A program made the translations under genes and the position numbers. DNA of 64,000 nucleotides, from positions 4,203,111 to 4,267,110 of the forward strand of contig NC_057757.1 of NCBI RefSeq assembly GCF_004010195.1, given 5' to 3'. This DNA comes from Chiloscyllium plagiosum (taxonomy: Eukaryota). Position 1 is the stretch's first letter; each line of letters begins with the position of its first letter. Of the stretch, positions 12,175 through 55,300 are shown piece by piece. Below the pieces are notes generated by a model. It was not told the origin of the DNA and did not search any database. It worked only from the letters and a program-made list of their open reading frames with translations.

Positions 12175-12589
12175 GATCTAGATGTCAACAAATCAGCGGG
12201 TTAGCTTTCAGTTAGCCGTTCAGCCCATCCCGACAGTACCATGCTGCGTAACTCTCTGTGCCAACCTCCATTTCCCCCTGCACACCCCTCCTACCCTAAT
12301 AACCATTGTCCCCTCTTCAGTTGAACCTGCTCCACACCCCCCACCTAATTGCCCATCAAGACCCTAACCACTTGCTGGGTGGTAATGTCTCCTCTTGCAT
12401 CATCCTTCATTTGTTCATCTGTCCCCTTCCCCTCTCATAGAGTCCTACAGCCCGGATACTGACCCTTCAGTCCAACTCGGTCAAATATCCTCAATCAATC
12501 TAGTCCCAGTTGGCAGCGTTTGGTCCATATCCCTCTGAACCTGCCCCACAACTATCTTGACTCCACCTCCTTTCACCCACCTGCCTGCA

Positions 12590-24280: not shown

Positions 24281-25069
24281 CCTCCATCTCCCACCAATCC
24301 TTGATTTCTGCACCCCTCCAATTCTGGTTCATTTATCTATCACTCTTTGAATCACAGAAGTCAACAGCACAGAAAACGGCCATTCAGCATTTTCAATTTA
24401 TGCTGGTCCAAAACAACCACTCAAACGTTTGTCGGAGAAATTAGCCCAATACAGCAGAGATCACAAAACACAGATTGAAGTAAAATGAACAAACATTTTC
24501 TTAGCACGACGATATCATGAAAGAGAAATTGGCTAAGTTGAAGCAGCACAGTCTGTCTGGGTAGCAGAAACTCTCTTCCTTGAGCTGAAAATGTTCCCAC
24601 AACTTTCTAACCCCAATTTCCCTCACCTCTTTTGATCTGTCTACCTGCCTGCCTGTCTGCCTGCCTACCTATCAATCTACCTATCTATCTGTCTGTCCAT
24701 CTCTGTAAATGTATATCTATCTGTCTATGCTTTGCTGAACTATTTGACATAATATGTCTCCAGGATGTGGCATTGCATGCTAGTCTGGTGACATGCCCCT
24801 GTCATTCGTGATACTCGTGTTATTTCCTGTGATGTAAAGATGAGATCACTTTGTACTGAATTATGCAGCAAACTCCCACCTCGGGCAACTGTCTGTGTGG
24901 AGTTTGCACAATCTCCCCGTGTCTGGGTGGGTTTCCTCCGGGTGCTCCGGTTTCCTCCCACCATCCAAAAGATGTGCTGGCCAAGTGAATTGGCCATGCT
25001 AAATTGTCCATAGTGTTAGGTGCATTAGTCAGGGGTAAATATTTGGTAGGGGAATGGGTCTGGGCAGGT

Positions 25070-26015
25070 TTTGAGGATGTAACTCTGAAGATGAATGAGG
25101 GAGATCCAGTAGATGTAGTGTACCTGGACTTTCAGAAAGCTTTTGATAAAGTCCCACATAGGAGGTTAGTCAGCAAAATTAGGGCACATGGTATTGGGGG
25201 CAAAGTACTAACTTGGATTGAAAGTTGGTTGGCTGATAGGAAACAAAGAGTAGTGATAAACAGCTCCATTTCGGAATGGCAGGCAGTGACCAGTGGGGTA
25301 CCGCAGCTTTTTACAATTTATGTTAATGATGTAGAAGATGGTATTAGTAATAACATTAGCAAATTTGCTGATGATACTAAGCTGGGTGGCAGGGTGAAAT
25401 GTGATGAGGATGTTAGGAGATTACAGGGTGACCTGGACAAGTTAGGTGAGTGGTCAGATGCAGTTTAATGTGGATAAATGTATGGTTATCCACTTTGGTG
25501 GCAAGAACAGGAAGGCAGATTACTACCTAAATGGAATCAATTTAGGTAAAGGGGCAGTACAAAGAGATCTGGGTGTTCTTGTACACCAATCAATGAAGGT
25601 AAGCATGACCCTTGAGTTTAGAAGACTGAGAGGGGATCTGATTGAGACATATAAGATTATTAAAGGATTGGACACTCTGGAGGCAGGAAACATGTTTCTG
25701 CTGATGGGTGAGTGCCAAACCAGAGGACACAGCTTAAAAATACGGGGTAGACCATTTAGGACAGAGATGAGGAGAAACTTCTTCACCCAGAGAGTGGTGG
25801 CTGTGTGGAATGCTCTGCCCAGAGGGCAGTGGAGGCCCAGTCTCTGGATTCATTTAAGAAAGAGTTGGATAGAGCTCTCAAGGATAGTGGAATCAAAGGT
25901 TATGATGATAAGGCAGGAACAGGATACTGATTAAGGATGATCAGCCATGATCATATTGAATGGTGGTGCAGGCTTGAAGGGCAGAATTGCCTACTCCTGC
26001 ATCTATTGTCTATTG
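25070..26015 (+). mobile_element. CR1-type LINE RT fragment with internal deletions
   Basis: VDVVYLDFQKAFDKVPH, TSGVP, KFADDTK, RRLRGDLIETYKI; (CTATTGT)n-like tail. Confidence 0.85.
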
Positions 26016-26509: not shown

Positions 26510-26620
26510 ACAATCTTTGACCTTTGACCAAGCCAATAAAGGTCAGGGGGCGACATGTGAAGGCTGATTGTGGCCAATCTCTAGTTTGTTTGTTGACTGG
26601 AGTGCAAACATTGCAATACA
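26510..26620 (+). promoter_or_regulatory. Putative liver-type promoter of the C1s-like gene (DR1/HNF4 site, CCAAT boxes, forkhead-like site)
   Basis: TGACCTTTGACCA (DR1) at 26518-26530; CCAAT at 26533 and ~26574; TTTGTTTGTT; all 70-170 bp upstream of ATGTG|GTGAGT. Confidence 0.5.
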
Positions 26621-26688: not shown

Positions 26689-26693
26689 ATGTG
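26689..26693 (+). CDS. C1S: C1s-like coding exon 1 (ATG TG)
   Basis: aaacATGTG|GTGAGT. The 5-nt phase-2 start is typical of this family and completes MW with the next exon. Confidence 0.7.
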
Positions 26694-29600: not shown

Positions 29601-32600
29601 TTCACTGGTGTTACTATTGCACTGTGGGTCAGTATTTCACTGGGGTTAGTATTTCACTGGAGCTTGTGTTGCTCTCAGGGTCAGTATTTCACTGGGGCTA
29701 GTGTTGCACTGATGGTCAATATTTCACTGAGGTTAGTGTTGCACTGAGGGTCAGTATTTCACTGGGGTTAGTGTTGCACTAAGGTCAGTATTTCACTGGG
29801 GTTAGTGTTGCACTGAGGGTCAGTATTTCACTGGGGTTAGTTTTGCACTGAGGGTCAGTATTTCACTGGGGTTAGTGTTGCACTGAGGGTCAGTATTTCA
29901 CTGCGATTAGTGTTGCACTGAGGATCAGTATTTCACTGGAGCTGGTGTTGCACTGACGGTCAGTATTTCACTGGTATTTGTATTGCACTGAGGGTCAGTA
30001 TTTCACTGGGGTTAGTGTTGCACTGAGGGTCAGTATTGAACTGGGAAGAATTGACTTTAATTTCTGTGCTCAGGCTCTGGAGAGGGCATGGGGAATGGTG
30101 TGTGTTGGGGGAGCATGACCTAGGAACCCTGGGGTTCTGAGATATGAGATGTAGCAGTGACGAATATTAATGGAGAGTCATGGTGTTTGCGAATCTTTTC
30201 TAATAATTCACCATTTTCAAAATGCCGGTTACTGGAGTCAGAACATTTGCTGGACCAAATATTCGGACTTCCAAAAAACATATATGTGCATATGTTAGTT
30301 TCTTTCATGGAATTGATGAGTCCTGTGACATCAGTCCTGTGAAGATGATTATCACGGGCCTATGTTATGAGGAGAGATTAAGCAGTTTACGCCTACACTC
30401 TCTGGAAATTAGTAAAATAAGAGATCTAACTGAGGTCTATAAGATGCGAAAGGCAATTGACAAAGTAGACATAGAAGGGATGTTTTCTCATGTGGAGCAA
30501 TTTAGAACGAGAGGTCACAGTTTTAGGATAATGGGCAGCAGATTTCAAACAGAGATGAGGAGGAACTGCTTCTCTCAAAGAGTTGGAGTATATGGAATTC
30601 ACTCCCCCAGAGTGTGACTGACACTGAGTAAATTTATGGAGGAGATAAAGCGGATTTTTAATTCGCAAAGGATTGAAGGGTTATGGAGAGAGAGCAAGTG
30701 GAGTTGGTTCTGAGATTCGATCAGCCATGATCATATTAAATGGTCAGAGAGTGTCAAGGGGGCAAGAATGAACTAAAGTGACATAAAGCCAGAAAGGGTA
30801 GTATTAAACCAGACAGAAAGTCTCCTCTGGGTTGCTCAGTTATTTACAGAACAGAGGATTCCAATGTCTGCCTCCTGTATTATAAACCAAGTATGCTGGC
30901 AGTCTCTCTTTACAAGTGCTCTTGTAAACAATACTTTGGCATCATAAGAATGACGTTTATTGTCACAGGCAGAAAAAAGATTGTAATGTTGCCGCTAATG
31001 GCGTTATCTTAGCGCCAAGATGCCTAGGTACAGATACTTACGTATTTGGTATAAAATTGAAAGAATAATAATTAAAAGTCCAACGTAAGAATAAAAAGGA
31101 CTGACAGTCTTTCCCATCCCAGTCTGCGCCAGCACCAAGCCTCCAGACTGCACTGGGCCAGGTCTCCGGACCATGCCAGGGTTCACGACCTCACTTCCAA
31201 ACCACAAGGGAATTGTCTCCCCGTGCAGGTCTCCAGTCCAGGACCTGTCTCCCCGCACCAGCCTCCAGTCCAGGACCTGTCCCCCCGCACCCGTCTCCAG
31301 TCCAGGACCCGTCTCCCAGCACCAGCCTCCAGTCCAGGACACCCTTCCCCACACCGACCTCCAGTCCGGGACTCCTCTCCCCACACCAGCCTCCAGACCG
31401 AGAATCCCCTCCCCCACACCAGCCTTTAGTCCGGGACTCCCCTCCCCCACACCAGCCTCCAGTCGGAGACTCCCCTCCCCCACACCAGTCTATGCGTTCT
31501 CCAAATAATCCAATTCATATGTAATTTGAGCATCAGAGGCTGAGTGGTGACCTTACGGAGGTTTATAAAATCATGTGGGGCATGGATAGAATAAATAGAC
31601 AGTGTCTTTTCCCTGCGGTGGGAGAGTCCAGAACTAGAGGGTATAGGTTTAGATTGAGAATGGAAAGATATAAAAGGGACCTAAGGAGCAACTCTTTCAT
31701 GCACAGGGTGGTACGTGTATGGAATGAGCTGTCAGAGGATGTGGTGGAGGCTGGTACAATTACAGCATTTAAGAGGCATGTGAATGGGTATATGAATAGG
31801 AAGGATTTAGAGGGATATAGGCCAAGTGCTAACAAATGGGCGTAGATTAGTTTAGGATATCTGGTCAGCATGGATGAGTTCGACTGAAGGGTCTGTTTCC
31901 GTGCTGTACATCTCTATGACTCTATGACTCCAACTGATTGGCCACAGGTCATCTGCTTTGATCTTGCTGGTAATTCCTGCATCCTGCGCCATTCAGCTGG
32001 AGCAACCTTCCGGAGAGTTCTTTTCCCCGAATCACCCTCTGCAATATCCAGCGTTCAGCAATAAGACCTGGGACATCTCTGCACCACAAGGTTACGTCGT
32101 GAAAGTTTATATCCCTTACTTGGACATTGAGCGATCGGAAGGATGTCAGAGCAGCTACTTACAGGTACAGTGAGACACAGAAACAATTGGCCAAGATTAC
32201 ACTGGGCCTGCTAAGCTTGTAATATCACAAACTACCATATATTGCTAAGCCTTGTATGGTGCAGAAGTAATGTCTCTAACTCTGAGCCACAAGAGCTGTG
32301 TTCAAATCCCACCTGCTCCAAAGTGTGCTAAAGCATCTCTACTGTGTTTTGCTCTGAGGTAGGTTAAGTTTTGTTGAGCTGTGAGATATGGACCATAGGC
32401 ATGTAGATGGAATTAAGCCACAGATTATCTCACTGAAAGATGGAACAGATTCTGAATGGCCTACTCCCATCATGTTTCCTTGAAAATGGAGTCGCAGGTA
32501 AATAGGATAGTGAAGAAGGCATTTAGTATGCTTTCCTTTATTGGTCAGAGCATTGAGTATTGGAGTTGGGAGGTCATGTTGCAGCTGTACAGGACATTCA

Positions 32601-35600
32601 TTAGGCTACTTTTGGAATATTGTGCTCACTTCTGGTCTCCTTCCTATCGGAAGGATGTTGTGAAGCTTGAAATGGTTCAGAAAAGATTTACCAGGATGTT
32701 GCCAGGGTTGGAGGATTTGAGCTATAGGGAGAGGTTGAATAGCCTGGGGCTAATTTCCCTGGAATGTTGAAGGCTGAAGGGTGACATTATAGAGGTTTAT
32801 AAAATCATGAGGCGCATGGATAGACTAAATAGACAAGGTCTTTGCCCTGGGGTGGGGGAGTCCAGAAGTAAGGGCATAGGTTTAGGGTGGGAGGGGAAAT
32901 ATTTAAAAGGGACCTAAAGGGCAACATTTTCATGCACAGGTTGGTGCATGTATGGAATGAGCTGCCAGAGCAAGTGGTGAAGCCTGGTACAATTACCGCA
33001 TTTAAAAGACATCTGGATGGGTATATGAATAGGAAAGGTTTAGAGGGGTATGGGCCAAGTGCTGGCAAATGGGAGTAGACTAGATTAGGATATCTGGTCG
33101 GCATGGATGAGTTGGGCCAAATTGTCTGTTTCCATGACTCTCTATGACTCTCTGACTCTAATTACCAGATATTTACCTCTTCCCTTTAGAATAGAGAAAG
33201 TTAAGAAGTTACCTCATGGAGACAATTAAGATCGGATGACAACGCGGGTTAGGCTTAAAAATGATGTTCTGTTTGTGTAAGAGACCCGAACTGAGGGGTC
33301 CTCTATAAAAGTCAGTCCCGAATTAATCCGCTGGGGAATTTGAACAAGAATCCTTCAATTCAGGGAGCCCAGCCTGTGTGGGAATGTAAATGTCAGTGTA
33401 GGCCATTTGGGCTGAATGGCCTGGTACACTGCTGTAAATAAGATGTAACCCGATATACCTTCATGGATTATTGTTCGTGCTGCAAAGGTTGATGTTCTGA
33501 GTACCATGGGGCCAAGATTTATCACTTGGGGACGACATTATGAACAAACTGCAGAGACGTTAAGTAGCTGATTTTTTTGTGTCATAATGTCATACAGCAC
33601 AGAAACAGGCCCTTTGGTCCTGCCAGTCCATGCCAAACATAATCCCAGACTAAATCAATCCTATCTGTCTGTGCTTGGTGCGTGTGCTTCCAAACATTTC
33701 CTTTCATGTACTTATCTAAATGTCTTTTAAATGTTGTAACTGTTGTAAATCCCCAAGACCTGATCAGGTGTACCCTAGAACTCTGTGAGAAACTATGGAA
33801 GTGATTGCTGGGCCCCTTGCTGAGATATTTATATCATCGATAGTGACAGGTGAGGTGCTAGAAGACTGGAGGTTGGCTAAAGTGGAACCACTGTTTAAGA
33901 AGGGTGGTAAAGACAAGCCAGGGAGCTAGAGACCGGTGAGCCTGACCTTGGTGGTGGGCAAGTTGTTGGAGGGAATCGTGAGGGACAGAATGTATATGTA
34001 TTTGGAAAGGCAAGGACTGATTAGGGATAGTCAACATGGATTTGTGCGTGGGCAGTCATGTCTCACAAACTTGATTGAGTTTTTTGAAGAAGTAACAAAG
34101 AGGATTGATGAGNNNNNNNNNNNNNNNNNNNNNNNNNNNNNNNNNNNNNNNNNNNNNNNNNNNNNNNNNNNNNNNNNNNNNNNNNNNNNNNNNNNNNNNN
34201 NNNNNNNNNNNNNNNNNNNNNNNNNNNNNNNNNNNNNNNNNNNNNNNNNNNNNNNNNNNNNNNNNNNNNNNNNNNNNNNNNNNNNNNNNNNNNNNNNNNN
34301 NNNNNNNNNNNNNNNNNNNNNNNNNNNNNNNNNNNNNNNNNNNNNNNNNNNNNNNNNNNNNNNNNNNNNNNNNNNNNNNNNNNNNNNNNNNNNNNNNNNN
34401 NNNNNNNNNNNNNNNNNNNNNNNNNNNNNNNNNNNNNNNNNNNNNNNNNNNNNNNNNNNNNNNNNNNNNNNNNNNNNNNNNNNNNNNNNNNNNNNNNNNN
34501 NNNNNNNNNNNNNNNNNNNNNNNNNNNNNNNNNNNNNNNNNNNNNNNNNNNNNNNNNNNNNNNNNNNNNNNNNNNNNNNNNNNNNNNNNNNNNNNNNNNN
34601 NNNNNNNNNNNNNNNNNNNNNNNNNNNNNNNNNNNNNNNNNNNNNNNNNNNNNNNNNNNNNNNNNNNNNNNNNNNNNNNNNNNNNNNNNNNNNNNNNNNN
34701 NNNNNNNNNNNNNNNNNNNNNNNNNNNNNNNNNNNNNNNNNNNNNNNNNNNNNNNNNNNNNNNNNNNNNNNNNNNNNNNNNNNNNNNNNNNNNNNNNNNN
34801 NNNNNNNNNNNNNNNNNNNNNNNNNNNNNNNNNNNGGAAAGATATAAAAGAGACCTAAGGGGCAATTCTTTCATGCAGAGGGTGGTATGTGTATGGAATA
34901 AGCTGCCAAAGGAAGTGGTGGAGGCTGGTACAATTGCAACATTTTAGAGGCATTTGGATGGGTATATGAATAAGAAGGGTTTGGAGGGATATGGGCTGGG
35001 TGCTGGCAGGTGGGACTAGATTGAGTTGGGATATCTGGTCGGTATGGACGGGTTTGACTGAAGGGAATGTTTCCGCACAGTACATCTCTATAACTCTATG
35101 ACTAAGAGGCCTCACCAATGTCCTGGACAACCTCAACATGACTTCCCAAAGCCAATACTCAAAGGACTGAGCAATGAAGGCAAACGTGCTAAACGCCTTC
35201 TTAACCACCTTGTTGCAATCTTCAAAGAATTATGTACTTGAGCCCCTAGGTCTCTCTATTCTACCAAACAACCCAAGGCCCAACTTTTAATTGTATATGT
35301 CTCACCCTTGTCTGTTTTACCAAAATGCAGCAGCTCACATTTATCTACATTGACCTCTGCAATTTTTCACCCATTGACCAAGACTCCTTTGTAACCTTAG
35401 ATAACCTTCTTCACTGTCCACTATGCCACCAGTTTTTTTTTTGTCTTCTGCAAACCTATTAACCAGGCCTTTTCTCTCTTCTCGTCCAAATAATTTCTGT
35501 AAATCATCCGTAACCTCTGTATTTACTTCCCTTGTGGCATTATGAATTGGAAGATTGGATTTTAAAAGCACCCAAGGCAAAGTGATAGGAACTTATCACC

Positions 35601-38600
35601 CATCTTTAATTGTCCAGAGGGGGTTGACAGTCAGGAAGCCAGAATAGCTGCTGTCCTTGCCCATCCCTGAGCACTCAGCAATGTGATGAACAGGAACAAG
35701 TTGTTAGTTGAATTCTACTATCTGCTAGTGGTGGGATGTGAACCGGCCACCACAAGTGGCCCCCTGGATTAATATCCCAGTGACAATGCCATTAGGCCAG
35801 TGCTGAACAGCTGCTGTGCTTAGGTCTTGTAATGCTTTAGGACTAATGCTCCAACACCAACCAACAGATCCTTTCGGAGGGAAGGGAACTGGCCAAGCTG
35901 TGTGGCAGGTGGGAAGATGATGGTAGCAATCTGAAACAGTATGAATACTATTCCACCAGCAACACACTGAGTGCCTTGTTCACATCCAAGAATCTTGAAT
36001 CCAAGCCGTTCACTGGATTTCTCGCCCTCTACTCCCGTGTCGGTAAGTCACCAAAATGTGCAGAGTCCAGAACCGTTTTCTCTTTGTTGGATTACTCCAT
36101 CGAGACCAGGCCATGGCAGCTCAAACCCAATGGCTCACGCAGCACAGGGTCCCAGGTTTGATTCCAGCCTTGGGCGACTGTCTGTGTGGAGCTTGCACAT
36201 CCTCCCCGTGTTTGCGTGGGTTTTCCCCGGGTACTCTGGTTTCCTCCCATGTGATATGCAGTTTAAGTGAACTGGCCATGCTAAATTTCCCAAAGTGTTA
36301 GGTGCATCATTCAGAGGGAAATGGGACTGGATGCATTACTCTTTGGAGGGTCGGTGTGGACTTGTTGGGCTGAAGGGCCTGTTTACACACTGTAGGGACT
36401 CTATCTAAATCTGCAATATTTGGCTTTTGAAAGTGCAGTTGTTGTTGTAATTCAGCGATATCCCCCTGCCCCTTAAAGACGAGATAATTCCCTTTTCCCT
36501 TTTCTCTGTCTGACTTTAATGACTGGGCCCTGTCTCCACCCAGATATCAATGAGTGTGCTGTCGATGACCATGGGTGCAGCCATTACTGCGGGAACACCA
36601 TTGGTAGCTACCACTGCTACTGCCCACGTGGTTTTGTCATTCAGAGCGATGCACGCACCTGCAAGAGTGAGTTTGCAACTGTTCAATATTTGCTTGAGAT
36701 GTCTCCACAATGGCGTCGCGTCAATGTCTGGTCTGGTTCGGTCCTTTGTATCAACAGATAGCATCCAATGTTGACAATTCCATGACATGAAGTTGGGACG
36801 GTTCGCGGTATTTGTCACATCCTCAGTTTTTCATCGGTGCTCCGACCCAATGATGACGGGGAATTGTCAGAGGAAGTGTCAAGTTCCCCTCCCAGCCTTT
36901 CCCCCGGCTTGGAAATATATCAGACATTCTTTCAGTGTTGTTGTATCAGAATCATGGAACTCCGTCTCTAAAGGCCCTGAATCTGGGTGTCCCTGCACCG
37001 CATGGGACTGCGGCGTTTCCAGAGGTCAGCTCACTCCGGCTTTCTTGAGGGGGCAGTTAGGGACGGGCGGCAAATGCTAGCCCAGTTAGTGATGCCTGGG
37101 TCTAAATAAAAGAAGTTTAAGCCAGCCCATGGGTGTGTAATTCATCGGAAGGAGGCAACACTAGCCTTGTACTTGACTACCGGTTTCTCAGCTAGAAGCT
37201 AAAACGGAGTGCAAAGCATTTCCAGGACAAAAGGAGGCCATTCAGCCCCTTCCTTACAATTCCCCCCTCCTCCATGTCTTCCTCCTTGGAATGAACCAAT
37301 GCTATTAACCCCTACGACGCCCTGTCGTGTTCTCACCTCTCACTGAGTGACAAGACTTCTGTTTGATGTTGTGCTGAGTTTGTTGTTAATGTCGCTGGAG
37401 AAACTGTGTGTAAAAAAGTGGGGGAGGGGGTGAGGTGGGCAAATTTTCTCCTTCCTGCCCCGCAGCTCAAGGCGCTGGCAGTCTCTCCTAGTCCAGCAAA
37501 TGAGCTGGATACATCCTGACGTTATGGAGCGAACTAGGGGCCAAGTTTCATTCATACCCCCAACCTCCTCCTTTCTCCTTCACTGACCTACCCCAAAACC
37601 CATCCACCCATGAGGCCAGCTCGTCCCACCTCACAAAAACCCTGCATCCAATGAGGCCATTCAACCCAGCAAATCCAACTACCCAGCAATCCAGTCAGTC
37701 CCATTTCCACCCTCCTCCTCCCTAATTCCAGGATCATACCCCTCAACTGTCCATCCAATTTCCCTTAAATTGATCCCGCCTCATGCCTCCATTTCTCCGC
37801 ATTAATGTCTTTTTACTCTTACAAAGGCTTCTAGCAATTGGATTTTCGTTTGTTGTCTTGAGTAAATGCTTCAATTATAGAGTCGAAAAGCATGGAAACA
37901 GATCCTTTGATCCAACTTGTCCATGCCAACCAGGCACCCCAACCTGACCATTTTGTCCATATCCCTCTCAACCCTTCCTATTCATATACTCATCCAGATG
38001 CCTTTTAAATGTTGTCATTGTACCAGCCTCCATCACTTCCAATGGCAGCTCGTGCCATACACGCACCACCCTCTGTGTGGAAAAAGTTGCCCCTTAAGTC
38101 ACTTTTGAATCTTACCCTCTCACCTTAAACCTATGCCCTGTAGTTTTGGATTCCCCCAACCCACCGTAAAGACTGGGGCTATTTACCCTATCCATGCCCC
38201 TCATGATTTTATAAACTTCCATAAGTTCACCCCTCAGTCTCTGATGCTCCAGGGAAAACATTCCCAGCCTTTGACCTCTCTCTCATGACCTTACAGAGGT
38301 TTATAAAATCATGAGGGGCATGGATAGGGTGAATAGCCAAAGTCTTTTCCCCAGGGTAGGGGAGTCCCAAACTAGAGGGCATAGGTTTAAGGTGAAAGTG
38401 TAAAGATTTAAAAGGGACCTGAGGGGCAGTTTTTTTCACACAGAGGGTAGTTTGCACAGAGGAAGTGGTAGATGCAGATACAGTTGCAACATTGAAAAGA
38501 CATTTGGATGGGTACATGAATAGGAAAGGTTTAGAGGGATATGGGCCAAATACAGACAAATTGGGCTAGATTCGTTTGGGAAATCTGGTTGGCATAGACG

Positions 38601-41600
38601 AGTTGGACCGAAGGGTCTGTTTTAATATTGCAGACTCAATGACTCTATTCAGCTCTCCCTGTAACTCAAGTCCTCCGGTCCTGGTAACATCCTTGTAAAT
38701 CTTTTCTGCACTTTCTCAAGTTTAACAATATCCCTTATATTGAAGGGAGAGTAGAATTGAACACAGAATTCCAAAAGTGGCCTAACCAATGTCCTGCACG
38801 GTCGCAACATGACCTCCCAACTCCTATACTCAATGCACTGACCAAAAAAGGCAAGAGTACCAAATGCCTTCTTCACTATCCTATCTACCTGTGACTCCAC
38901 CTTCTAGGATCTATGAACCTGCACCTCAAGGTCTCTTTGTTCGGCAACATGCCCCAGGACCATACCGTTAAGTGTATACGCCACTTCCTGATTGGCCTTA
39001 CCAAAATGCAACACCTCACATTTATCCATCTGCCACTCCTCGGCCCATCGGCCCATCTGATCAAGGCCCCGTTGTACTCTGAGGTAGCCTTCTTCACTAC
39101 GCCCCCAATTCTGTTTCAATATTTTCAGCTCCGTTTCTTCAGTTCCATTTCTCCAGTGACTCTGGCTCCAGCAGCGTGACTTTTTAAAACATGGACGGAC
39201 GGCCTTGTGTTTCTACCTACAACTTCTTGTCATGTTTCGTCCACAGAAGTACACGTGTTTTGCCCCAATCGGGTTCTACAGAACAGTATCCTGGACCCCT
39301 CCTGGCCAAGGTTCGATGTTCGAGACACCGTGAAGGTGACCTGTGAACCAGGATATGAAATAGTCAAGGTGAGGGTCTAATATTGCCATCTGAAATATAG
39401 AAAGCAGGTGCAGGAGTAGGCCATTCGGCCCTTCAAGCCTGTACCACTTATTCCTGGTTGACCGTGCAAACTCAGTATCCCATTCCCATTTTCCCTCCAT
39501 TACCCCTCGATCTCTCTACCTGCAAGAGTCACGTCCAGTTCCCGTTTCAATATATGGAATGAACCAGCCCCGACGGCTTTCTGCGTGAGAGAATTCCATA
39601 GGTTCCCAACTCCCCGAGTGAAGAAATTCTCCCTCATCTCAATCTGGTCATTTACTGAGGGATGCCTCCATATCCGTCCATTCACTCCTCTCCAATTATC
39701 TGCCAAAATGCCTCTTAAATGTTGCTATTGTATACCCCTCCACCATCCCTTCTAGCAGCATATTTGAGGCACTTAATTTGCCTCTCATAGGGCAGCTCAG
39801 TGATCAGCACTGCTGCCTCATGGCACCAGGGACCTGTGTTTGATGCCAGCCTCGGAGCGACTGTCTGCGTGGAGTTTGCATATTCGCCCCCTGTCTGCGT
39901 GGGGGTTTCCTCCGGGTGCTCTGGTTTCCTCCCACAGTCCAAAGATGTGCAGGTTAGGTGGACTGTCTGTGCTAAATTGCTGTAATATGGGGAATGCTGG
40001 GATAGACCAGGGAGTGGGCCTGGATGGCATGCTGTTTGAAGGTTTGATGTGGACTTGTTGGGCCGAATGGCCTGTCCCCACACAGTAACGATTCTATGAC
40101 ATAAACTTGCCCCCTCTTACCTTAAACCCATGTCCCTTAATAATTGCCATGTCTACCCCAGAAAAAAAAGACATGATTATCTAGGCCTCTTGTAATTTTG
40201 TAAACTTTTATCAGGTCACCCCTCAACCTCCAATATTCAAGCAAAAACAAACCAGTACCTCAGGGTCCCAGGTTCGATCCCAGCCTCAGGTGTGGAGTTT
40301 GCACATTCTCCCCGTGTCTGTGAGCGTTTCCTCCCACAGTTCAGAGATGTACAGGTTAGGGTCCATTGGCCACGCTAAATTGTCCCATAGTGTTCAGGGA
40401 TATGTAAGTTAGGTGCAGAGGAAATGTAGGGGAATGGGTCTGGGTAGGTTACTCTTCAGAGGGTCAGTGTGGACTTGTTGGGCCAATATGACTTATTTAT
40501 ACACTGTAGGGATTCTGTGGAACAACATAGCTAATACTCTCTCCAAAGACTCCACATCCTTCTGGTAATGTGGCAACCAGAGCTGTACACAATATTCCAA
40601 ATGTGGCCCAACTAACGTGCTTATACAGCTGCAAGGTGACTTGTCAGCTTTTGTACTCAATACCCTGATTAAGGAATGCAAGTATGGCCTCCTTGACCAC
40701 CTTATCCACTAGACATGTTCAAGGAATTGTGGATCTGTATACACGGATCACCCAGTATGTTAAATCTGAGTCTGAGATCTTAATCCTACTGTCGTGCAGA
40801 TTGATGCAATGATGATATCACGAGGATGTCTGTTAATGGTACACTGTATACAAACAGTGACAACAAAGTGGAAAGGTTCAGGGAAGGGATTCTGAAGACT
40901 AGGGCCCAAACAGCTCAAGGCTCAGGCGCCATTGGTGGAGCGATGGGAAGCGAGGACCCACAAAAGGCCAGAAGAGGAGGAGTGTGGAGATCTCGGAGGG
41001 TCGTGGGTCTTGTGCCGGAGGAAGAGGATGGGAACATGAGTTAATGTACAAACAAATGAACAAAATTAGGCCATTTGGCCCTTCAAGCCTGCAACCCCCT
41101 CTCCCGAGCCATTCCATGTGATCATGGCTTATCTGACTTTAATCTCACCTCTACGCTGTTAAATTTTCCAATGAAGTTAAGTTATACCAATTTATTCTTT
41201 CTTTTGTTGTATTTTACCTGATGTGTTTGAGTAAAGTGGGTTTTATTTCAATTCTGGTAGTTTGACCAAACAAATTGCATTCGGAACGTAACACCTTACA
41301 CTTACCTTTAAAATAAGAAAAAGTTAGGGTCCAGACTATTTTCTGAATATGTCTTGAGGAGGTTTGGACTAGTCAATAACAATTACTCGGGGGGAAATGT
41401 AGACTAATAGGGTATAGGGGAATGGGTCTGGGTGGGATACTCTTTGGAGGATCAGTGTGGACTTGTTGGGCCAAATGGCCTGTTTCAACACTGTAGGGAT
41501 TCTATGATTAATTAACATCTTTGCACAAGTATGACCAATGCCATCAAAAAAATGCAAAGATGGTTTTAGACTCAAAGCTAATGCGTTGTTATAATAATCT

Positions 41601-44600
41601 CTCTTAGGGATATCAGACAATCCCACACTTTTACGCAGAATGTCACGAAGATGGGACTTGGAAGACTCCAGATTACAGCTGCCAGCGTGAGTGGGCTTCC
41701 ACATGAGTGAGAATGTCTTCCGTTTTATGCCATACCATCCAACCTATTAGCTGGCACTGTGAGAAACGTCAAAACTGCATTCAGCTTAGTGACGATCATC
41801 AAGACACCAGCAATGGGAAGCCATCTCGTTCACTTATGTCCACCTTTGCCCTGTCCCAACCTTCCCAAATCAGTTGGTAAAGAATAAGACCAGTGCTGTG
41901 TCTTCTAGCCCCACATTGGGCGGCTGACCCATGATTGGCAAAGTAGGCATCCTCCAAGTGACTCCAGACTTACACACAACAATGTAGTTGGCTTTGGACT
42001 GCCCTAGTGAGCCACAGACTTCAACAGTCGTAAAATTCCTACGGTGTGGAAACAGGCCATTTGACCCATCCCAATCCTCCAAAGAGCATCCCACACAACT
42101 CCAACCCCCGACCTTAACCCTGTGACCCTGCATTTTCCATGGCTAACCCACACATTCCTAGACACTTTGGGACAATGTAGCACAGCCAATGCACCCTAAC
42201 CTGCACATCCCTGGGCACTATGGGACAATTTGCAATGGCCAATCCACCCTAACCTGCACATCCCTCGGCACTATGGGGCAATTTACAATGGCCAATTCAC
42301 CCGAACCTGCACATCCCTGAACACAATGGGACAATTTAGCATGGCCAATCAACCCTAAACTGCACATCCCTGGGCACTATGTGACCATTTAGCATGGCCA
42401 ATCCACCCTAACCTGCACATCCCTGGGCACTATGTGACAATTTGCAATGGCCAATCCACCGTAACCTGCACATCCCTGGACACTATGGGACAATTTAGCA
42501 TGGCCAATCAACCCTAAACTGCGTCCTTTTCCAGCAACACATTTTCAGCTCTGATCTCCAGCATCTGCAGTCCTCACATTCTCCTCGACAATTTAGCATG
42601 GCTAATCCACCTTAAACTGCACATCCCTGGACACTATGGGACAATTTAGCATGGCCAATCCACCCTAATCTACACATCTCAGGACACTTTGGGACAATTT
42701 AGCATGGCCGATCCACCCTAACATGCATGTACCTGGACACTATGGGACAACATAGCACAGCCAATCCACCCTAACCTGCACATCCCTGGACACTACGGGA
42801 CAACTTAGCATGGCCAACCCACCCTAAACTGCACATCCCTGGACACTATGGTACAATTCAGCATGGCCAATCCACCCTTCCCTTTGGAGAACTATAGATC
42901 AGCAGAAATTGCTGGAAAAGCATCAGCAGGTCTGTGGAGAGAAATCAGAGTTACCATTTCAGGTTGAGTGACCCTTCCTCAGGACCGCAGCTGTGTATGA
43001 GCCAGACGTAAATATTTTCCCGATCACACCTGCTTGGGGATATAGCACCTTTTGAGCAGGTGGGGCTTGAATGCAGGTCTTGTGTTTGAGGGGGACACTA
43101 TCACTGCACCACATGAGCAGGCAACATAAGTCAGCGGGCATTGTGAGAGATAAAAGTTGAGGTTCTGTATTGAAACACAACTAGCTAATCCAATAGCTCT
43201 GTTATATTTTCTGTTTACAGTTGTGGATTGTTCAGTTCCACCTTCAATTGAGAACGGGCAGTTTGCGTTTATTACGAAAGCCGCTGTGACCACCTACAAA
43301 GCTACAATTCGGTACCAGTGTGATGAGCCTTATTATCAGCTGCAGATAGACCATCATCGTGAGTCAAATCATTTTCAGGAGGAGTGGGTTGTTTTTATTT
43401 GAAAAGAGAGGAAATATTTTGAATGCCACTGAAATAATATTGAGTTTCATCCTAGAATAACATTTGCTATTGTTTAGTGTGAAGTTACAAGTTGTTGACA
43501 GCAGTGGCCATTCTGCCCACTGCTCCTGTGCTAGCTCTCTGTGACAGCAACTCTGCGCGTCACTCTTACCCCCTCCCCCACCTCATCCCCTGCGTCATCT
43601 TCCTCCTGATTTGATTTTATTTATTACTGTCACATGTGCCGGGTTACAGTGCAAAGTATTGTTCTGCGTGCTAAGCAGACAGATCCTACCTGATAGAGGT
43701 GCATAAGATTCTGAGGGACACGGACAGGGTGGATAAAAAGGGTCAATAACCAGGGGGCAAAATGTTAAAATGAAAGGCAGAAGGGGGTTTCAGGAAGTGG
43801 TTTCTCACCCAGAGGGTGTGCCTGTGAAAGGGTTCCATGATGCACATTGTACAAGGGGCTCAAATTAAAACCAAATCTGGCAGAATGGTGTGGGACTACA
43901 ATCCTTGACTCCGTCATTGACAAATGTGTACAATCTCTTGGCAGGAGACTTCCACTGCACAGCTGAAGCAACGTGGGAAAATAATGCGACAGGTCAAGAT
44001 CTGCCGAAATGCACCCCAGGTAACCGAGGGGAGTGAATCCGTGGAATGCTTCACCACAGAGAGCTGTCGAAGCTGGGCATTCGAGGCTGAGATAGATTTT
44101 TAATCAGGAAGGGGATCAAGGGTTACTTCTGAAGAAGGGTCACCAAACTCTGTCCGCGAGGAGTTTGCATGTTCTCCCCGTGTCTGCCTGGGCTCTGTCC
44201 GGTTTCCTCCCACAGCCCAAAGGTGTGCAGATTGGGTGGATTGGCTGTCCAGGGGTGTGCAGACTAGGTGGGTTAACCATGTTTAAAAACCCCACATTAG
44301 GTTACATGGAGGCGCTGGGTCAGTGTGGGATGCTTTTTAGTGAGTTGGTGCAGACTTAATGGGCCGAATGGTCTCTTTCTGCACCATAGGGATTCTATGA
44401 TTCCATAATTCCATGTTTCTAGGATTGCATGATTCCAAGATTCTATGATTCCATCATTCTATGATTCCATGATTCTTTCTAAGATTCTATGATTTCATTA
44501 TTCTAAGATTCCATAGTTCTCTAATTCCATCATTCTATGATTCCATAGTTCTATCATTCTATGATTCCATGATTCTGTGATTCTATTACTCTACAATTCC

Positions 44601-47065
44601 ATGATTCTATAATTCCATGCATCTATAATTGTACAGCTCCATGATTCTGTCATTCTACTATTCCATAATTCTATCATTTTGTGATTCTACGACATCATGA
44701 CTCCATGATTCTACAATTCTACAATTCCACGATTCTATCATTCGATGATTCCATAATTCTATGATTTGGTAATTCTATGACACGAAACGTTAGCGCTGCA
44801 TTCTCTCTTTCTTCACAGATGCTACCAGAGCCCGCAGAGTTTCTCTGGCAGTTTCAGTTTTCCCCTTGAGATTTCCAGTGTTGGTTTTAATCATAGGGAA
44901 GTCGAGGGTGGCGGGAGAAAGGAGGCAGGGAGGTGGAGCTGGGGATGACCAGATGAGTCACTGGCTCTGACAATGGAGCAAATAGCCTGCTCTCATTCTC
45001 ACGGCTTCCTGATGAAGAGTCTTATCTTTTCTCTCTCTCCTCCCTGTGTGTGTGTCTGTGTATCTGTGTGTGTGTGTCTGTGTATCTGTATCTGTGTGTG
45101 TCTGTGTATGTGTGTGTCACTGTATATATATGTGTGCCATTGTGTCTGTGTATCTCTGTGTGTGTATATGTGTGCCTCTGCATCTGTAAGTAGGGGGATG
45201 GTGCTGGAAAAGCACAACAGGTCAGGCAGCATCCCAGGAGCGGGNNNNNNNNNNNNNNNNNNNNNNNNNNNNNNNNNNNNNNNNNNNNNNNNNNNNNNNN
45301 NNNNNNNNNNNNNNNNNNNNNNNNNNNNNNNNNNNNNNNNNNNNNNNNNNNNNNNNNNNNNNNNNNNNNNNNNNNNNNNNNNNNNNNNNNNNNNNNNNNN
45401 NNNNNNNNNNNNNNNNNNNNNNNNNNNNNNNNNNNNNNNNNNNNNNNNNNNNNNNNNNNNNNNNNNNNNNNNNNNNNNNNNNNNNNNNNNNNNNNNNNNN
45501 NNNNNNNNNNNNNNNNNNNNNNNNNNNNNNNNNNNNNNNNNNNNNNNNNNNNNNNNNNNNNNNNNNNNNNNNNNNNNNNNNNNNNNNNNNNNNNNNNNNN
45601 NNNNNNNNNNNNNNNNNNNNNNNNNNNNNNNNNNNNNNNNNNNNNNNNNNNNNNNNNNNNNNNNNNNNNNNNNNNNNNNNNNNNNNNNNNNNNNNNNNNN
45701 NNNNNNNNNNNNNNNNNNNNNNNNNNNNNNNNNNNNNNNNNNNNNNNNNNNNNNNNNNNNNNNNNNNNNNNNNNNNNNNNNNNNNNNNNNNNNNNNNNNN
45801 NNNNNNNNNNNNNNNNNNNNNNNNNNNNNNNNNNNNNNNNNNNNNNNNNNNNNNNNNNNNNNNNNNNNNNNNNNNNNNNNNNNNNNNNNNNNNNNNNNNN
45901 NNNNNNNNNNNNNNNNNNNNNNNNNNNNNNNNNNNNNNNNNNNNNNNNNNNNNNNNNNNNNNNNNNNNNNNNNNNNNNNNNNNNNNNNNNNNNNNNNNNN
46001 NNNNNNNNNNNNNNNNNNNNNNNNNTGCCTGAGACTGTGTGTGTGAGAGAGCGTGTGTGTGAGAGTGAGTGTGTATGAGAGAAAGTGAGTGTGTGTGTGT
46101 TTGTGTGTGCATCTGTGTATCTGTGTCTGTGTACCTATGTGTGTGTGTGTATCTATGTGTGTGTGTGCATGTGCGTCTGTGTATCTGTGTGTGTGCCTGC
46201 ATGCGTGTGTCTGTGTGTGTGCGTGTGTGTATCTGTGTCTGTGTGCCTATGTGTGTGTGTGTGTGTGTGTGTTGCAGTGTGTGGGAAGCCCAGTAACCCA
46301 CTGGTCTTCGGTGAGAGGATCCTGAAGGGCTCGGTGGCGAAGAGGGGCAACTTCCCGTGGCAGGTGCTGTTCCAGAAACCCCGGGGGGCTGGGGCACTCA
46401 TCTCAGACCAGTGGGTGCTGACAGCTGCCCATGTGGTCCACAGGATGTCGGGATTGTCCATGATCGCGGGTATCACCGACACCAGGAAGGCGAGCGAGGG
46501 CACGCGGCTATTCGCCGACGGGGTCTTCGTCCACCCGGGCTACCACCCCCCGCAGGACGACGCCTACGACTACAACAACGACGTGGCCCTTGTCCGCCTG
46601 AGGTCCAAGCTCCGGCTGGGAGCCGACCTGTCGCCCATCTGTCTGCCCGGCCGCGATGCCCGCCACGCCCTGCCCACCGGCAAGGTGGGGCTGGTCTCCG
46701 GCTGGGGGGTGACCGAGAACGACACGCTGCCCGAGCAGCTCATGTACGTCCGGCTGCCGGTCAGGGAGCTGAGCGAGTGCCGCGAAAAGACGGCCGGGCT
46801 CCGCGTCACCGTCACCGACAACATGATCTGCGCCGGCGACCAGTCGGGGGCGGACAGCTGCCAGGGTGACAGCGGGGGGGCCTTTGTCTTTGCCCGCCCC
46901 AAGCCCCGACGCAACGAGTTCTTCGTGGGCGGGGTGGTCTCATGGGGGGTCAACTGCGGCACGTTTGGCTTCTACACCAAGGTGGCCAACTACCTGGACT
47001 GGATCGAGAAAACGATGAGGGAGAATGAACCTCTTCCCTCGCCTAGCGCCGGGTCACTGCCCTGA
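26689..47065 (+). CDS. C1S: Complement C1s-like serine protease (CUB-EGF-CCP-CCP-SP; no CUB2), 9 coding exons, 573 aa
   Basis: Exons 26689-26693, 31948-32164, 35868-36042, 36544-36666, 39247-39368, 41608-41686, 43221-43358, 43945-44019, 46278-47065 total 1722 nt, are all GT-AG and in phase, and contain no internal stop. The protease domain resembles C1s. Confidence 0.88.
27530..27594 (-). pseudogene. tRNA-Lys pseudogene
   Basis: Degenerate copy of 23600-23672 with the anticodon arm deleted; flanks ~27410-27900 are homologous to ~23480-23990. Confidence 0.75.
28053..28114 (+). pseudogene. tRNA-Val pseudogene
   Basis: GTTTCCGTAGTGTAGTGGT..GCTTCACATGTCAAAGGTCCCC..GGTGGGAAT; T-arm/B box deleted. 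Confidence 0.7.
28496..28960. mobile_element. Penelope-end fold-back (~183-bp inverted arms, 22-nt loop)
   Basis: 28496-28678 is the reverse complement of 28701-28883; approximate TSD TGGAAATATA / TGGAAGTATA. Confidence 0.8.
28509..28544 (-). ncRNA. Minimal hammerhead-ribozyme core (Penelope-type)
   Basis: Minus strand ATTC-CTGATGA-A-GGGC-TTAT-GCCC-GAAAC-ATC-GATT: catalytic core boxes with a perfect stem II. Confidence 0.5.
29225..30045. repeat. Minisatellite, 35-bp unit (gtgttgcactgagggtca-gtatttcactggggtta)
   Basis: More than 20 tandem copies; the unit is a dimer of related 18- and 17-bp halves. Confidence 0.92.
31225..31490. repeat. C-rich minisatellite (cagcctccagtccaggac..ccccacac)
   Basis: About 8 imperfect copies; explains the Pro-rich ORFs 31173-31524. 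Confidence 0.8.
31948..32164 (+). CDS. C1S: C1s-like exon: signal peptide + CUB1 N-half
   Basis: ccacag|G..CAG|gtacag; [52 protein letters not shown]. Confidence 0.88.
33750..35105 (+). mobile_element. CR1/HER1 LINE fragment spanning an assembly gap
   Basis: [32 protein letters not shown] before the gap; 3'UTR after the gap. Confidence 0.8.
35868..36042 (+). CDS. C1S: C1s-like exon: CUB1 C-half
   Basis: caacag|ATC..G|gtaagt; [36 protein letters not shown]. Confidence 0.85.
36544..36666 (+). CDS. C1S: C1s-like exon: Ca-binding EGF
   Basis: cccag|AT..A|gtgagt; [41 protein letters not shown]. Confidence 0.92.
39247..39368 (+). CDS. C1S: C1s-like exon: CCP1 N-half
   Basis: ccacag|AA..AAG|gtgagg; [40 protein letters not shown]. 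Confidence 0.85.
41608..41686 (+). CDS. C1S: C1s-like exon: CCP1 C-half
   Basis: ctcttag|GGA..C|gtgagt; [26 protein letters not shown]. Confidence 0.85.
42170..42880. repeat. SINE-derived tandem repeat, ~54-bp unit
   Basis: gggacaatttagcatggccaatccaccctaacctgcacatccctggacactat repeated ~12 times, interrupted by a Penelope-end piece at ~42525-42585. Confidence 0.85.
43221..43358 (+). CDS. C1S: C1s-like exon: CCP2 N-half
   Basis: tttacag|TT..C|gtgagt; [30 protein letters not shown]. Confidence 0.9.
43945..44019 (+). CDS. C1S: C1s-like exon: CCP2 C-half
   Basis: ggcag|GA..G|gtaacc; [24 protein letters not shown]. Confidence 0.85.
44390..44780. repeat. (GATTCYAT)n 8-mer expansion of a SINE tail
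   Basis: Continuous degenerate GATTCTAT/GATTCCAT array directly after the SINE 3' end. Confidence 0.85.
46035..46272. repeat. (TG)n-rich microsatellite abutting the protease-exon acceptor
   Basis: Degenerate TG repeat running directly into ttgcag|. Confidence 0.9.
46278..47065 (+). CDS. C1S: C1s-like exon: single-exon trypsin-like serine protease domain
   Basis: VCGKP..ER|ILKG activation site, [21 protein letters not shown] (Ser codon AGC), VSWG, no histidine-loop Cys; ATTAAA at 47091. Confidence 0.95.
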
Positions 47066-52300: not shown

Positions 52301-55300
52301 ATCTCAAAATTTCATTTATGGATGTCTTGTGAAAATGGGGTCAGGGATCAGCAGTGACCTTCATTCCTCACTGTCAATAGTTTGTAACATTTGTCAAAGA
52401 GGGAGTGTCTGGAAGGCCTGGAGAACTTTCAACCTTGGGTTGGTGAGCAGTGAGGAACATGCTTACAACGCCGTTGTCAAACAGTCACTACCACCAGTCA
52501 ACGAGAGACGAGGCTCCCACCCCCGCGATGGTCAATGGAGTCACCGTCATTGAGAAGCTCCATCCTTGAGAGTCCGCCATTGACCAGGCAGCGAACAGAA
52601 CCAATGGCTATTGGTTCAGTGGTTGACTCAAAGGAAGTTCTCCTACCTCTAAGCCAACCAGTCTTCGTTCAAGACCACCCTCAGGAAGTGATGGCCAGCA
52701 ATGAGGGGCTGTACGGTGGCTCAGTGGTTAGCACTGCTGCCTGTCAGCACTAGGGGACCCAGGTTCAATTCCAGCCTCAGTGTGGGGAGTTTGCAAGTTC
52801 TCCCTGTGTCTGCATGGGTTTCCTCCAGGTGCTCCAGTGTCTGCCCACAGTCCAAAGATATGCAAGTCAGGTGAATTGGCCATGGTAAATTCACCATAGC
52901 GTTAGGTGCATTAATCAGGGTTAATTGTAGGGGAATGGGTCTGGGTGGGTTGCTCTTCGGAGGGTTGATATGCACTTGGGCCAAAGGGCCTGCTTCCGCA
53001 CTGTAGGGAATCTAATCTAATCGTCCAATCAAGTAATTATAAATGGCCATCTTGCAGAGGTGCCAGTGTTGGACTGGGGTGGACAAGGTCAGAAGTCACA
53101 ATGTTATAGTCCAACACTTTCATTTGAAATCACAAGCTTTTGGAGCGCTGCTCCTTGGTCAGGTGACCTCTCACAAAAAAAAAGGTTACAGAGGCTAGGA
53201 ATCTTGATAGAGGTGTACAACATGACGAAACGCATATGTAGAGTGGATAATCAGGTGGAATTGGCTATCATGAGGGGGCATAATTTTTACGATGATTTGA
53301 GGAAGGTTTTGGGGAGATATCAGAAGTAGGTTCTTTACACAGAGAGTGGTGGGTGTGTGGAATGCACAGCCAGTGGTAGTAGTAGTAGAGGCAGGTATAT
53401 TAGAGACTTTCAGCAACTCTTGGATAGGCACATGGAAGTTAGTATAATGAAGGGTATGGAGGTTAGTTTGATCTCAGAACAAGATGAAAGTTCAGCACAA
53501 CATCGAGGGCTGAAGAGCCTGTACTGTGCTGTACTGTTCTATGTTCTAAGTTCTAGGTAATTCACCTTCCTGACTGCCCAAGGTTGATCCACCATTAACA
53601 AGGCACGAGTCAAGAGTGTGAGGGACTACTCCCCACTTGCCCCAGATGGGGGCAGCTCCAACAACACTCAAGAAGCTTGACACAAATCAAGGACAAAGCA
53701 GTACCCAGCTTGATTGGCACCACATCCACTCCCTCCACCGCAAATCCCTAAGACCATAGGAAATTGGAACAGGAGTAGGCCATTTGGGTCTGCTCCACCA
53801 TTCAATAGGATAATGGCTGATCCGACATTCCTCATATCCACGATTCCCTGACTGACCAAGAGTCTATCTCAACCTTAGAACAGGACTCTGCCCCCACAGG
53901 TCTCTGTGGCAAGGAGTTCCAAAGACTCAGAAACCCTCTAAGGGAAGAACTCCTTCCTCATCTCAGTCTTAAATCGGCTCCCCTTTATTCTGAGACTGTG
54001 CCCTCTGGTTAGGGGATTCACTCTCTCAGCATTGATCCTGTCAAGCTCCTTATGAGTCCTGCATGTCCGAATGAGATCACCTCTCATTTTTCTAAACGCC
54101 AATAAGTAGAGTCCCAACCTGTTTAGTCTTTGCTCACAAACAATCCCTCCACATCCTGGTCTCTATCGAGTCAACCTTCTCCAGCGAGCTCAGGAGCAGC
54201 AGTGTGTACCAACTACAAGATGCAGTGTAGAAACTCACCTACAAAAGCCTGATGTTGGAGGATGGAGATTTCTCAACAAGGTGGACATTTAAAGGAATAC
54301 ATGCGGGGGAGTCCCATCGCTGGTCATTGAGATGTCTTAACATCGGAAGTTTTGGTCAAAGATGCGGAACGTGATCTCAGCGAGTGCCTGTTCATTGTTG
54401 GCTCCAACAAGAGAAAACCCTGAACCCTGGAGAGAATTTCTGAGTCAACCACATCAGATGGATGTATCACTACCTGGTATGGCAACTGTACCATTCAACA
54501 TCGGAGACAGTTACAGAGAGTGGTAAACTCGGCCTGTGCAATCACAAAGGCCGACATCCCATCCACAGAATCCATCTCCCAGGCCCGCTGTCAAGGAAAG
54601 GCCGCCAGCATTCTCAAAGATCCATCCCACCCTGGCAATAACCATCGGGGAGAAGGTACAGAAGCCTGAACACACGCACCAGCTGGTTTCACAACAGTTC
54701 CTACCCTACTGTTGGTAGAATACTGAATGGACTCACAAACTTTAACATTCGCCTGTACCTGTGTCTTTGTTTTTGCTACTGTTTACCTATTATTTACTTA
54801 TCTATGTTACTTAACTTTGTGATCTGCCTGTATTGCTCGCAAAACAATGCTTTTCACTGTGCCTCTGTACATGTGACAATAAATTCAATTCAATTCAGAA
54901 TGGATCCCTTTAATTCTGCCCCTTTATCTCCTTGTTCCACCCAGGGCTCTGCTCGTACTGTGGGGTTTAGGTGACGGGGCGTTGGCCGAAGCTAACCACT
55001 CTGGCGTTTATGGTGAGATTTATTTGACAAATTACCAACATGACGATGCTCGGGCGTGGGACATTGAGGTCCCACCGGGATTTGCTGTGGGATTTCACTT
55101 CCGCCACTTTGATTTGTCAGCATCTCCGTCATGTAAGCGGCACTATTTGGAGGTACCTCAACTATTTGTCCTGTTATATAGAGATGATGTTCCACTGTGT
55201 AGCTTATGGGCAAGTGCTGGCATAGTGGGCGCGTCACTGAGCTCGGAAATCCATGCCAATGTCTTGGAGGGCCAAGCGTTTGCAACTCCACCACAGTATA

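Follow-up and report, generated by a model that had tools for sequence, protein, structure and literature searches.

To our knowledge, every well-studied protease of the C1r/C1s/MASP family is aimed by docking on a collagenous sensor through its CUB domains. How would a family member work that has lost the docking site? The question is raised by a C1s-like gene, here called Gene A, in a stretch of 64,000 nucleotides of the Chiloscyllium plagiosum genome (assembly GCF_004010195.1, contig NC_057757.1, positions 4,203,111 to 4,267,110, forward strand), referred to below as the window. A sequence-only reading of the window had proposed that the first CUB domain (CUB1) encoded by this gene has lost the acidic residues that bind calcium and collagen, that the calcium-binding EGF domain is intact, and that the enzyme, which also lacks CUB2, may dimerise but not dock on C1q or collectins. 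Our comparison with related proteins indicates that Gene A is an ancient chondrichthyan C1s-derived paralogue retained beside ordinary C1s, and that loss of its direct calcium-dependent collagen docking is well supported by sequence.

The window does contain the CUB1 stretches and the EGF motif quoted in that reading; they are encoded on the + strand by three exons (31948-32164, 35868-36042 and 36544-36666), all with canonical AG/GT ends. The window protein was aligned with six canonical C1s proteins by MAFFT, and residue numbering and roles were taken from PMC4222235. In C1s, Glu45, Asp98 and Ser100 are in contact with the lysine of the collagen, and the calcium site depends critically on Asp53; mutation of Glu45, Tyr52 or Asp98 strongly changes C1q binding; and Tyr52, Asp98 and Ser100 are C1q/lysine determinants (PMC4222235). 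The replacement of YD by SS and of SDFSN by SKNLE, as originally read, affects these positions as follows:

32129-32131, + strand: Glu45, kept
32150, + strand: Tyr52 changed to Ser
32153, + strand: Asp53 changed to Ser
35988, + strand: Asp98 changed to Lys
35994, + strand: Ser100 changed to Leu
35997, + strand: Asn101 changed to Glu

The proposal that the acidic residues are lost thus needs a slight amendment: Asp53 and Asp98 are gone, but Glu45 stays, so that one acidic ligand in three remains. Ten Gene A rows were compared, namely the window and nine orthologues with a complete CUB-EGF unit; partial or EGF-less sequences (hammerhead, catshark, sawshark, Rhinoraja) and near-duplicates (zebra shark, extra isoforms) were left out. 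Glu45, Asp53 and Asp98 are all present in each of 26 canonical rows (11/11 C1s, 7/7 C1r and 8/8 MASP-like) and in none of the ten Gene A rows, a difference that is not due to chance. Taken singly, Asp53, Asp98 and Tyr52 are each kept in 0/10 rows.

What is left of the site might be a remodelled one, in which Glu45 and an acidic residue at position 101 still bind lysine or a metal, so that the domain could still dock on a ligand that is collagen-like or otherwise basic. Glu45 is kept in the window and in 8/10 Gene A rows overall, Glu stands at position 101 in 4/10, and the Gene A CUB is net acidic in 9/10. However, several residues are seen at position 101 (E, K, G, S, N), the loop that follows Ser97 belongs to the more variable stretches of Gene A, and the chimaera protein, the row with Glu at both 53 and 98 in place of the lost aspartates, has Lys at 45. 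We consider a working remodelled site quite improbable. Nor have the calcium ligands been displaced, because both ligand loops align without gaps and show no shift. With Tyr52, Asp53, Asp98 and Ser100 all changed, the Gene A protein would very probably be unable to use the calcium-lysine site for docking on the collagen of C1q or collectins. The sequence-only reading had also counted the loss of CUB2 toward this failure to dock, and that part does not stand: C1q does not bind C1s at CUB2 (PMC5789954), so that the loss of this domain takes away no docking site.

The EGF domain is intact, as had been claimed. Its ligands Asp116, Glu119 and Asn134 are kept in the window and in 10/10 Gene A rows, and in 17/17 when the rows of the neighbouring Gene B, described below, are added. 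The absence of CUB2 also holds: the EGF exon splices in frame straight to CCP1, and a six-frame, unfiltered CUB2 profile scan found no remnant, its sole result being a weak cross-match on the CUB1 exon. A CUB2 hidden in an assembly gap is ruled out, there being no run of N between EGF and CCP1. Gene A comprises nine exons from 26689 to 47065 that form one open frame of 573 residues encoding a signal peptide and five domains (CUB, calcium-binding EGF, CCP1, CCP2 and protease):

26689..26693, + strand: first coding exon (start codon and two bases), the sole Met-Trp phase-2 donor among the 10 upstream candidates listed
31948..32164, + strand: signal peptide and first half of CUB (Glu45 retained; Ser in place of both Tyr52 and Asp53); Pfam CUB, best PDB match C1s CUB1
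35868..36042, + strand: second half of CUB (Asp98 to Lys, Ser100 to Leu, Asn101 to Glu), by alignment; top PDB match MAp19
36544..36666, + strand: calcium-binding EGF, ligands intact; Pfam EGF_CA above cut-off
39247..39368, + strand: first half of CCP1, joined straight to EGF by an in-frame splice, with no CUB2
41608..41686, + strand: second half of CCP1
43221..43358, + strand: first half of CCP2
43945..44019, + strand: second half of CCP2
46278..47065, + strand: serine protease, single exon, with its own stop codon
47091..47096, + strand: ATTAAA, a possible poly(A) signal, with a second copy at 47323
14033-14758, 34113-34835 and 45245-46025: assembly gaps (N), two of them in Gene A introns

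Translation around the first exon agrees with the whale-shark and zebra-shark models at their N-termini. A TGACC(T) direct repeat and a CCAAT box lie at 26518-26537 (+ strand), 150-170 bases upstream of that exon; we take the repeat to resemble a liver-type HNF4 site.

The domains of Gene A follow the order of the C1r/C1s/MASP family (CUB, calcium-binding EGF, CCP, trypsin-like protease) and are homologous to those of C1r and C1s, and in a CCP2-protease tree Gene A falls inside the C1r/C1s group with support 98/98. It departs from the six-domain layout of the family in lacking CUB2. The closest solved relative by sequence is the C1s zymogen, PDB 4J1Y. An AlphaFold model of the basking-shark orthologue has a predicted local distance difference test (pLDDT) score of 86, and its best Foldseek match is C1s, confirming the fold.

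Is the enzyme itself alive? Gene A is predicted to encode a secreted, active trypsin-like protease zymogen of C1s descent, with an intact His-Asp-Ser triad, an Asp189-type pocket and an Arg activation site:

46316, + strand: activation Arg
46430, + strand: catalytic His
46580, + strand: catalytic Asp
46871, + strand: catalytic Ser (AGC codon)

Proteases of the AGY lineage have a single-exon protease domain, an AGY codon for the active Ser and no histidine-loop cysteines. Gene A has a single-exon protease domain and an AGC Ser codon, and Cys42 and Cys58 are absent from 10/10 rows. The names attached to the AGY-type lineage are C1r, C1s, MASP-2 and MASP-3 (PMC8605247). At the N-terminus exposed by activation (46316-46330, + strand), the third position is Lys, Arg or His in 10/10 Gene A rows and mostly Gly in the family.

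The residues of the anion-binding C4 exosite of C1s (bioRxiv 2022.08.17.504303) were mapped onto Gene A through the 4J1Y alignment. The corresponding loop has no Lys or Arg and carries an N-x-T sequon instead in 10/10 Gene A rows. In canonical chondrichthyan C1s the loop holds 0-4 basic residues, with at least one Lys or Arg in 10 of the 11 rows matched (of 13). The basic exosite of C1s proper is thus absent from Gene A, a modest contrast with shark C1s. Since a sequon stands where C1s has its basic C4-binding loop, C4 cleaved in the manner of C1s is probably not the main substrate.

Gene A is no oddity of one species, since five-domain orthologues of this layout are known from sharks, rays, skates and chimaera and form one clade. 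The nearest relative of the window gene among the matches listed is that of the whale shark (85% identical). In the CCP2-protease tree (54 rows), the Gene A clade (100/100) is distinct from that of chondrichthyan C1s (98/89) and lies outside C1r (100/98); the deeper branching order of this tree is unsettled and its bootstrap did not fully converge. Gene A and the canonical C1s of these species thus group separately. Canonical C1s was found in whale shark, bamboo sharks, horn shark, basking shark, catshark, dogfish, sawshark, devil ray and chimaera, and the whale shark carries both genes, on separate contigs. Whale shark, the two bamboo sharks and others have a six-domain C1s with an intact CUB1 site; Glu45 and Asp53 are present in 13/13 canonical chondrichthyan rows, and Asp98 is matched in 12/13. 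The absence of canonical shark C1s from the best 120 matches had suggested that Gene A might be the only shark C1s, an idea ruled out by these finds. The sequence-only reading had treated the lost site as an event in a single gene; the loss is real, but it belongs to the ancient paralogue.

Decay of the Gene A CUB is likewise ruled out. Between chimaera and elasmobranchs, CUB identity is 43-44% for Gene A and 43% for CUB1 of C1s, and CCP2-protease identity is 56-57% for Gene A and 41% for C1s. The Gene A CUB being as conserved as C1s CUB1, the site was lost from a domain under continuing constraint.

A second CUB-EGF unit, on the same strand and 8 kb downstream of Gene A, was found by tblastn with a whale-shark model. 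We call it Gene B (54945-61293):

54945..55152, + strand: signal-peptide-like stretch and first half of CUB, with Glu45, Tyr52 and Asp53 all changed
58466..58643, + strand: second half of CUB, with Asp98 changed to Arg, in a basic loop
61162..61293, + strand: calcium-binding EGF, ligands intact

Four candidates for its first exon were seen in the window, the best in a repeat-like stretch, and none was accepted. The CCP and protease exons lie outside the window and that part is known from relatives, in which Gene B consists of CUB-EGF, one CCP and a protease domain, with no CUB2. The protease domain is dead: His57 is Ser, Thr or Ala and Ser195 is Gly in 6/6 rows, with the activation Arg and Asp189 retained. 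The histidine-loop pair Cys42/Cys58 is present in 6/6 rows of Gene B relatives and absent from the C1r, C1s and MASP-2 rows, and was apparently regained. The Gene B clade includes the chimaera (support 100/99). The three acidic CUB ligands occur together in 0/7 Gene B rows, and the CUB is net basic in 6/7, with conserved arginines near the former calcium loop. An unusual Tyr in the EGF is common to Gene A (10/10) and Gene B (6/7), where the canonical rows have Ser in 23/26. An atlas search with the Gene B CUB-EGF returned only C1s, MASP and tolloid clusters.

Gene A is followed by Gene B in the window, in each of ten fused database models and at consecutive catshark loci that share a contig. 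The fused models, from different genera, are 1,050-1,100 residues long and, with another long catshark model, might be taken as evidence for one true read-through gene encoding a double protease. The joints differ in every model, however, and Gene B retains a signal-peptide-like start inside them. In the window, Gene A has its own stop codon, followed 26 bases on by the possible poly(A) signal, and stand-alone forms exist for both Gene A (560 residues, also from Logan contigs of 1.8-1.9 kb) and Gene B (504-535 residues). For these reasons the fusions look like annotation artefacts, and a read-through gene is very improbable. The stingray model XP_059832311.1, presented in PMC11312191 as the most primitive C1s layout, is one of the A-B fusions. 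The annotation is corrected accordingly: the fused models conceal both genes, and sharks, rays and chimaera do have an ordinary C1s with six domains.

Are the two N-termini of the same type? Profiles of CUB1-EGF were built from seven C1r and seven C1s units and placed all controls correctly (23/23 held-out, 14/14 leave-one-out). By these profiles Gene A is nearer C1s in 10/10 rows and Gene B nearer C1r in 7/7. The CUB-EGF tree places Gene B within C1r (95/87) and Gene A with C1s (94/85). A C1r-type N-terminus for Gene A, hinted at by the EGF hairpin, is unsupported for the CUB or for the whole CUB-EGF unit. The CCP2-protease part of Gene A is also nearer C1s by profile, as is the catalytic part of Gene B (6/6). 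These placements suggest that Gene B is a chimera, with a C1r-type CUB-EGF on a C1s-type catalytic part; an approximately unbiased (AU) test that did not reject grouping of Gene B with C1r on the catalytic part (p 0.31) counts against the chimera.

The reading we favour, tentatively and with somewhat less than even confidence, is that Gene A encodes a C1q-independent protease that dimerises through its CUB-EGF unit, presumably with the product of Gene B. That Gene A still dimerises is plausible by analogy: CUB1-EGF of C1s by itself forms calcium-dependent dimers (PMC4222235), and the EGF-bound calcium would probably still support a head-to-tail CUB-EGF dimer. If the protein does dimerise, the chance that its preferred partner is Gene B, a C1s-type CUB-EGF facing a C1r-type one, seems to us about even. 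The product would be a reduced heterodimer on the C1r/C1s plan, in which one protease domain is live and the other dead. Gene B being unable to activate Gene A, the latter must be cut by another protease or by itself; on this scheme the cut would fall at the activation Arg. Gene B could serve as a targeting or regulatory subunit, with its basic CUB loop in place of the acidic collagen site.

Several observations weigh against this scheme. Residues in the dimer region of Gene A are unlike those of the family (Thr40 to Pro, His41 to Tyr, Phe135 to Thr). C1r fragments without CUB2 are reported to be monomeric, which weakens Gene B as a dimer partner, and CUB2 supplies contacts favouring the C1r-C1s heterodimer (PMC5789954). 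Profile margins for Gene A and Gene B are 10-34 bits, against 45-99 bits for canonical controls; 4/10 Gene A rows, the window's included, lean toward C1r on EGF alone; and the branch joining Gene A to C1s falls slightly below the star mark. AU tests on CUB-EGF rejected neither a single clade of Gene A and Gene B (p 0.065) nor a C1r clade without Gene B (p 0.22). In the chimaera the two genes are on different contigs, and adjacency there is unproven. The hammerhead 'C1s2' record and a skate (Rhinoraja) isoform of Gene A have no EGF exon, and such forms would not dimerise through calcium. Finally, the few basic residues (0-4) in the shark C1s exosite loop weaken the argument that C4 is not the main substrate. 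A complex prediction that set two whale-shark Gene A CUB-EGF units and one Gene B CUB-EGF unit in competition, with calcium (no alignments, controls not folded), scored 0.24 and 0.00, below the mark of 0.34, and speaks neither for nor against any pairing.

Some of the same facts bear on another scheme, in which the Gene A protein acts alone as a calcium-dependent homodimer or a monomer, a free protease of plasma or tissue detached from C1, and Gene B has a separate job, for example as a haptoglobin-like binding protein. The homodimer has its precedent in the C1s CUB1-EGF fragment, which lacks CUB2 (PMC4222235), an EGF-less form of Gene A is recorded from the hammerhead, and the tandem position is explicable by duplication history only. 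CUB2-less, often dead, copies of C1r and C1s also appear to have arisen repeatedly in bony vertebrates, so that no fixed partner is needed. On the other hand, Gene A and Gene B share both losses, of CUB2 and of the CUB calcium site, and both retain the EGF site; both have a range that takes in chimaera and rays; the types toward which their N-termini lean complement each other; and the EGF Tyr is common to them. Action of Gene A alone thus appears somewhat unlikely.

The CUB2 contacts bear also on whether the Gene A protein might be an alternative C1s subunit, paired with C1r through CUB1-EGF and activated by it, that diverts or dampens the classical pathway. Of the six C1q sites, C1r gives four, and the heterodimer has its conserved core in the CUB1-EGF contacts (PMC5789954). 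Shark C1r retains an intact CUB site, so the Gene A protein, with its C1s-type N-terminus and Arg activation site, could ride into C1 on C1r sites without C1q binding of its own. Against this, mutation of C1s Glu45 or Tyr52 by itself severely harms C1q binding (PMC4222235), and the catalytic arm is shorter without CUB2. The CUB2 contacts explain the preference for C1r-C1s pairing (PMC5789954), which makes entry of Gene A into C1 through C1r less likely; those contacts being gone from Gene A, ordinary C1s should outcompete it. We judge an alternative subunit unlikely.

The A-B heterodimer can be extended to a bolder proposal in three parts, which we regard, taken jointly, as rather unlikely. 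Gene A and the chimeric pseudoprotease Gene B, with its histidine-loop disulfide regained, would be an obligate heterodimer, forming a second chondrichthyan initiation module, independent of C1q, since the chimaera-shark split; the basic Gene B CUB loop would bind a polyanionic or surface trigger, targeting Gene A without a collagenous sensor; and a pair of genes in bichirs may be the same module, which would then be ancestral to jawed vertebrates. CUB2-less C1r/C1s copies, often dead, were found in bichirs, lungfish, newts, frogs and some teleosts, and the CUB calcium site is kept in 1/7 CUB2-less bony-vertebrate rows. Of the two bichir forms, one is active, with the layout CUB-EGF-CUB-EGF, and the other is dead, with the layout CUB-EGF-CCP; the two join Gene B and Gene A in the CUB-EGF tree with weak support and long branches. 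On the catalytic tree, newt, frog, bichir and teleost CUB2-less forms group with local C1r or C1s. For that reason repeated origin of CUB2-less forms is the simpler reading, and a single origin of them all is unsupported; gene conversion could mask a shared origin.

The rest of the window holds a NAIP-like gene, head to head with Gene A and about 14.5 kb upstream, with an exon at 11515-12177 (- strand) that encodes two BIR stretches and has NAIP proteins as its best PDB matches (E about 1e-59). Long interspersed element (LINE)-type reverse-transcriptase fragments lie at 18084-18955 (- strand) and 24989-25465 (+ strand), and introns are filled with similar-looking fragments and tandem arrays (35-, 53- and 8-base units).

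In sum, Gene A appears active and is conserved across chondrichthyans without a docking site, and so it must be aimed in another way; its dead neighbour, Gene B, is a concrete candidate for how. As to the sensors, MBL (mannose-binding lectin), ficolin, C1qA and C1qC were reported not found in cartilaginous fishes in a review (PMC6795676), and shark and ray MBL accessions are listed in PMC11312191. No description of the lost site or of the A-B pair was found in the open literature, a search that did not cover key shark-complement sources. The Gene A sequence had already been deposited and named; the lost site and the dead-protease neighbour are real and conserved.

Among known systems, Gene A most resembles C1s in its CUB1-EGF and CCP2-protease parts, its single-exon AGY-serine protease, its Arg activation site and its Asp189. 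It differs from C1s in lacking CUB2 and the CUB1 calcium/collagen site, in the sequon that replaces the basic C4 loop, in the basic third residue after the activation site, and in forming a clade separate from canonical shark C1s. The hammerhead 'C1s2' (UniProt A0A146GEF4, BAU69614.1) is an orthologue in the same clade, 72% identical in the protease exon, with the same CUB changes and no CUB2; unlike the window gene, the record is without EGF. The template proposed for an A-B pair is the C1r-C1s heterodimer, arranged head to tail through CUB1-EGF around the EGF calcium (PDB 6F1C; PMC5789954). In contrast to C1r and C1s, both Gene A and Gene B lack CUB2 and the CUB calcium site, and the C1r-type partner is dead, has one CCP and would have no activating ability. 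Haptoglobin consists of a CCP and a dead protease domain, without CUB-EGF. Haptoglobin and C1r-like protein, which were left out of our trees, are shortened family members, as are Gene A and Gene B, and haptoglobin resembles the C-terminal half of Gene B; yet Gene B keeps CUB-EGF and the Cys42/Cys58 pair, and Gene A appears active, with an EGF and both CCPs. MAp19 and MAp44 are truncated MASP products that keep the collagen site and lack the protease domain. They share a CUB1-EGF unit of the dimerising kind with Gene A and Gene B, which show the reverse arrangement, the protease domain present and the collagen site lost.

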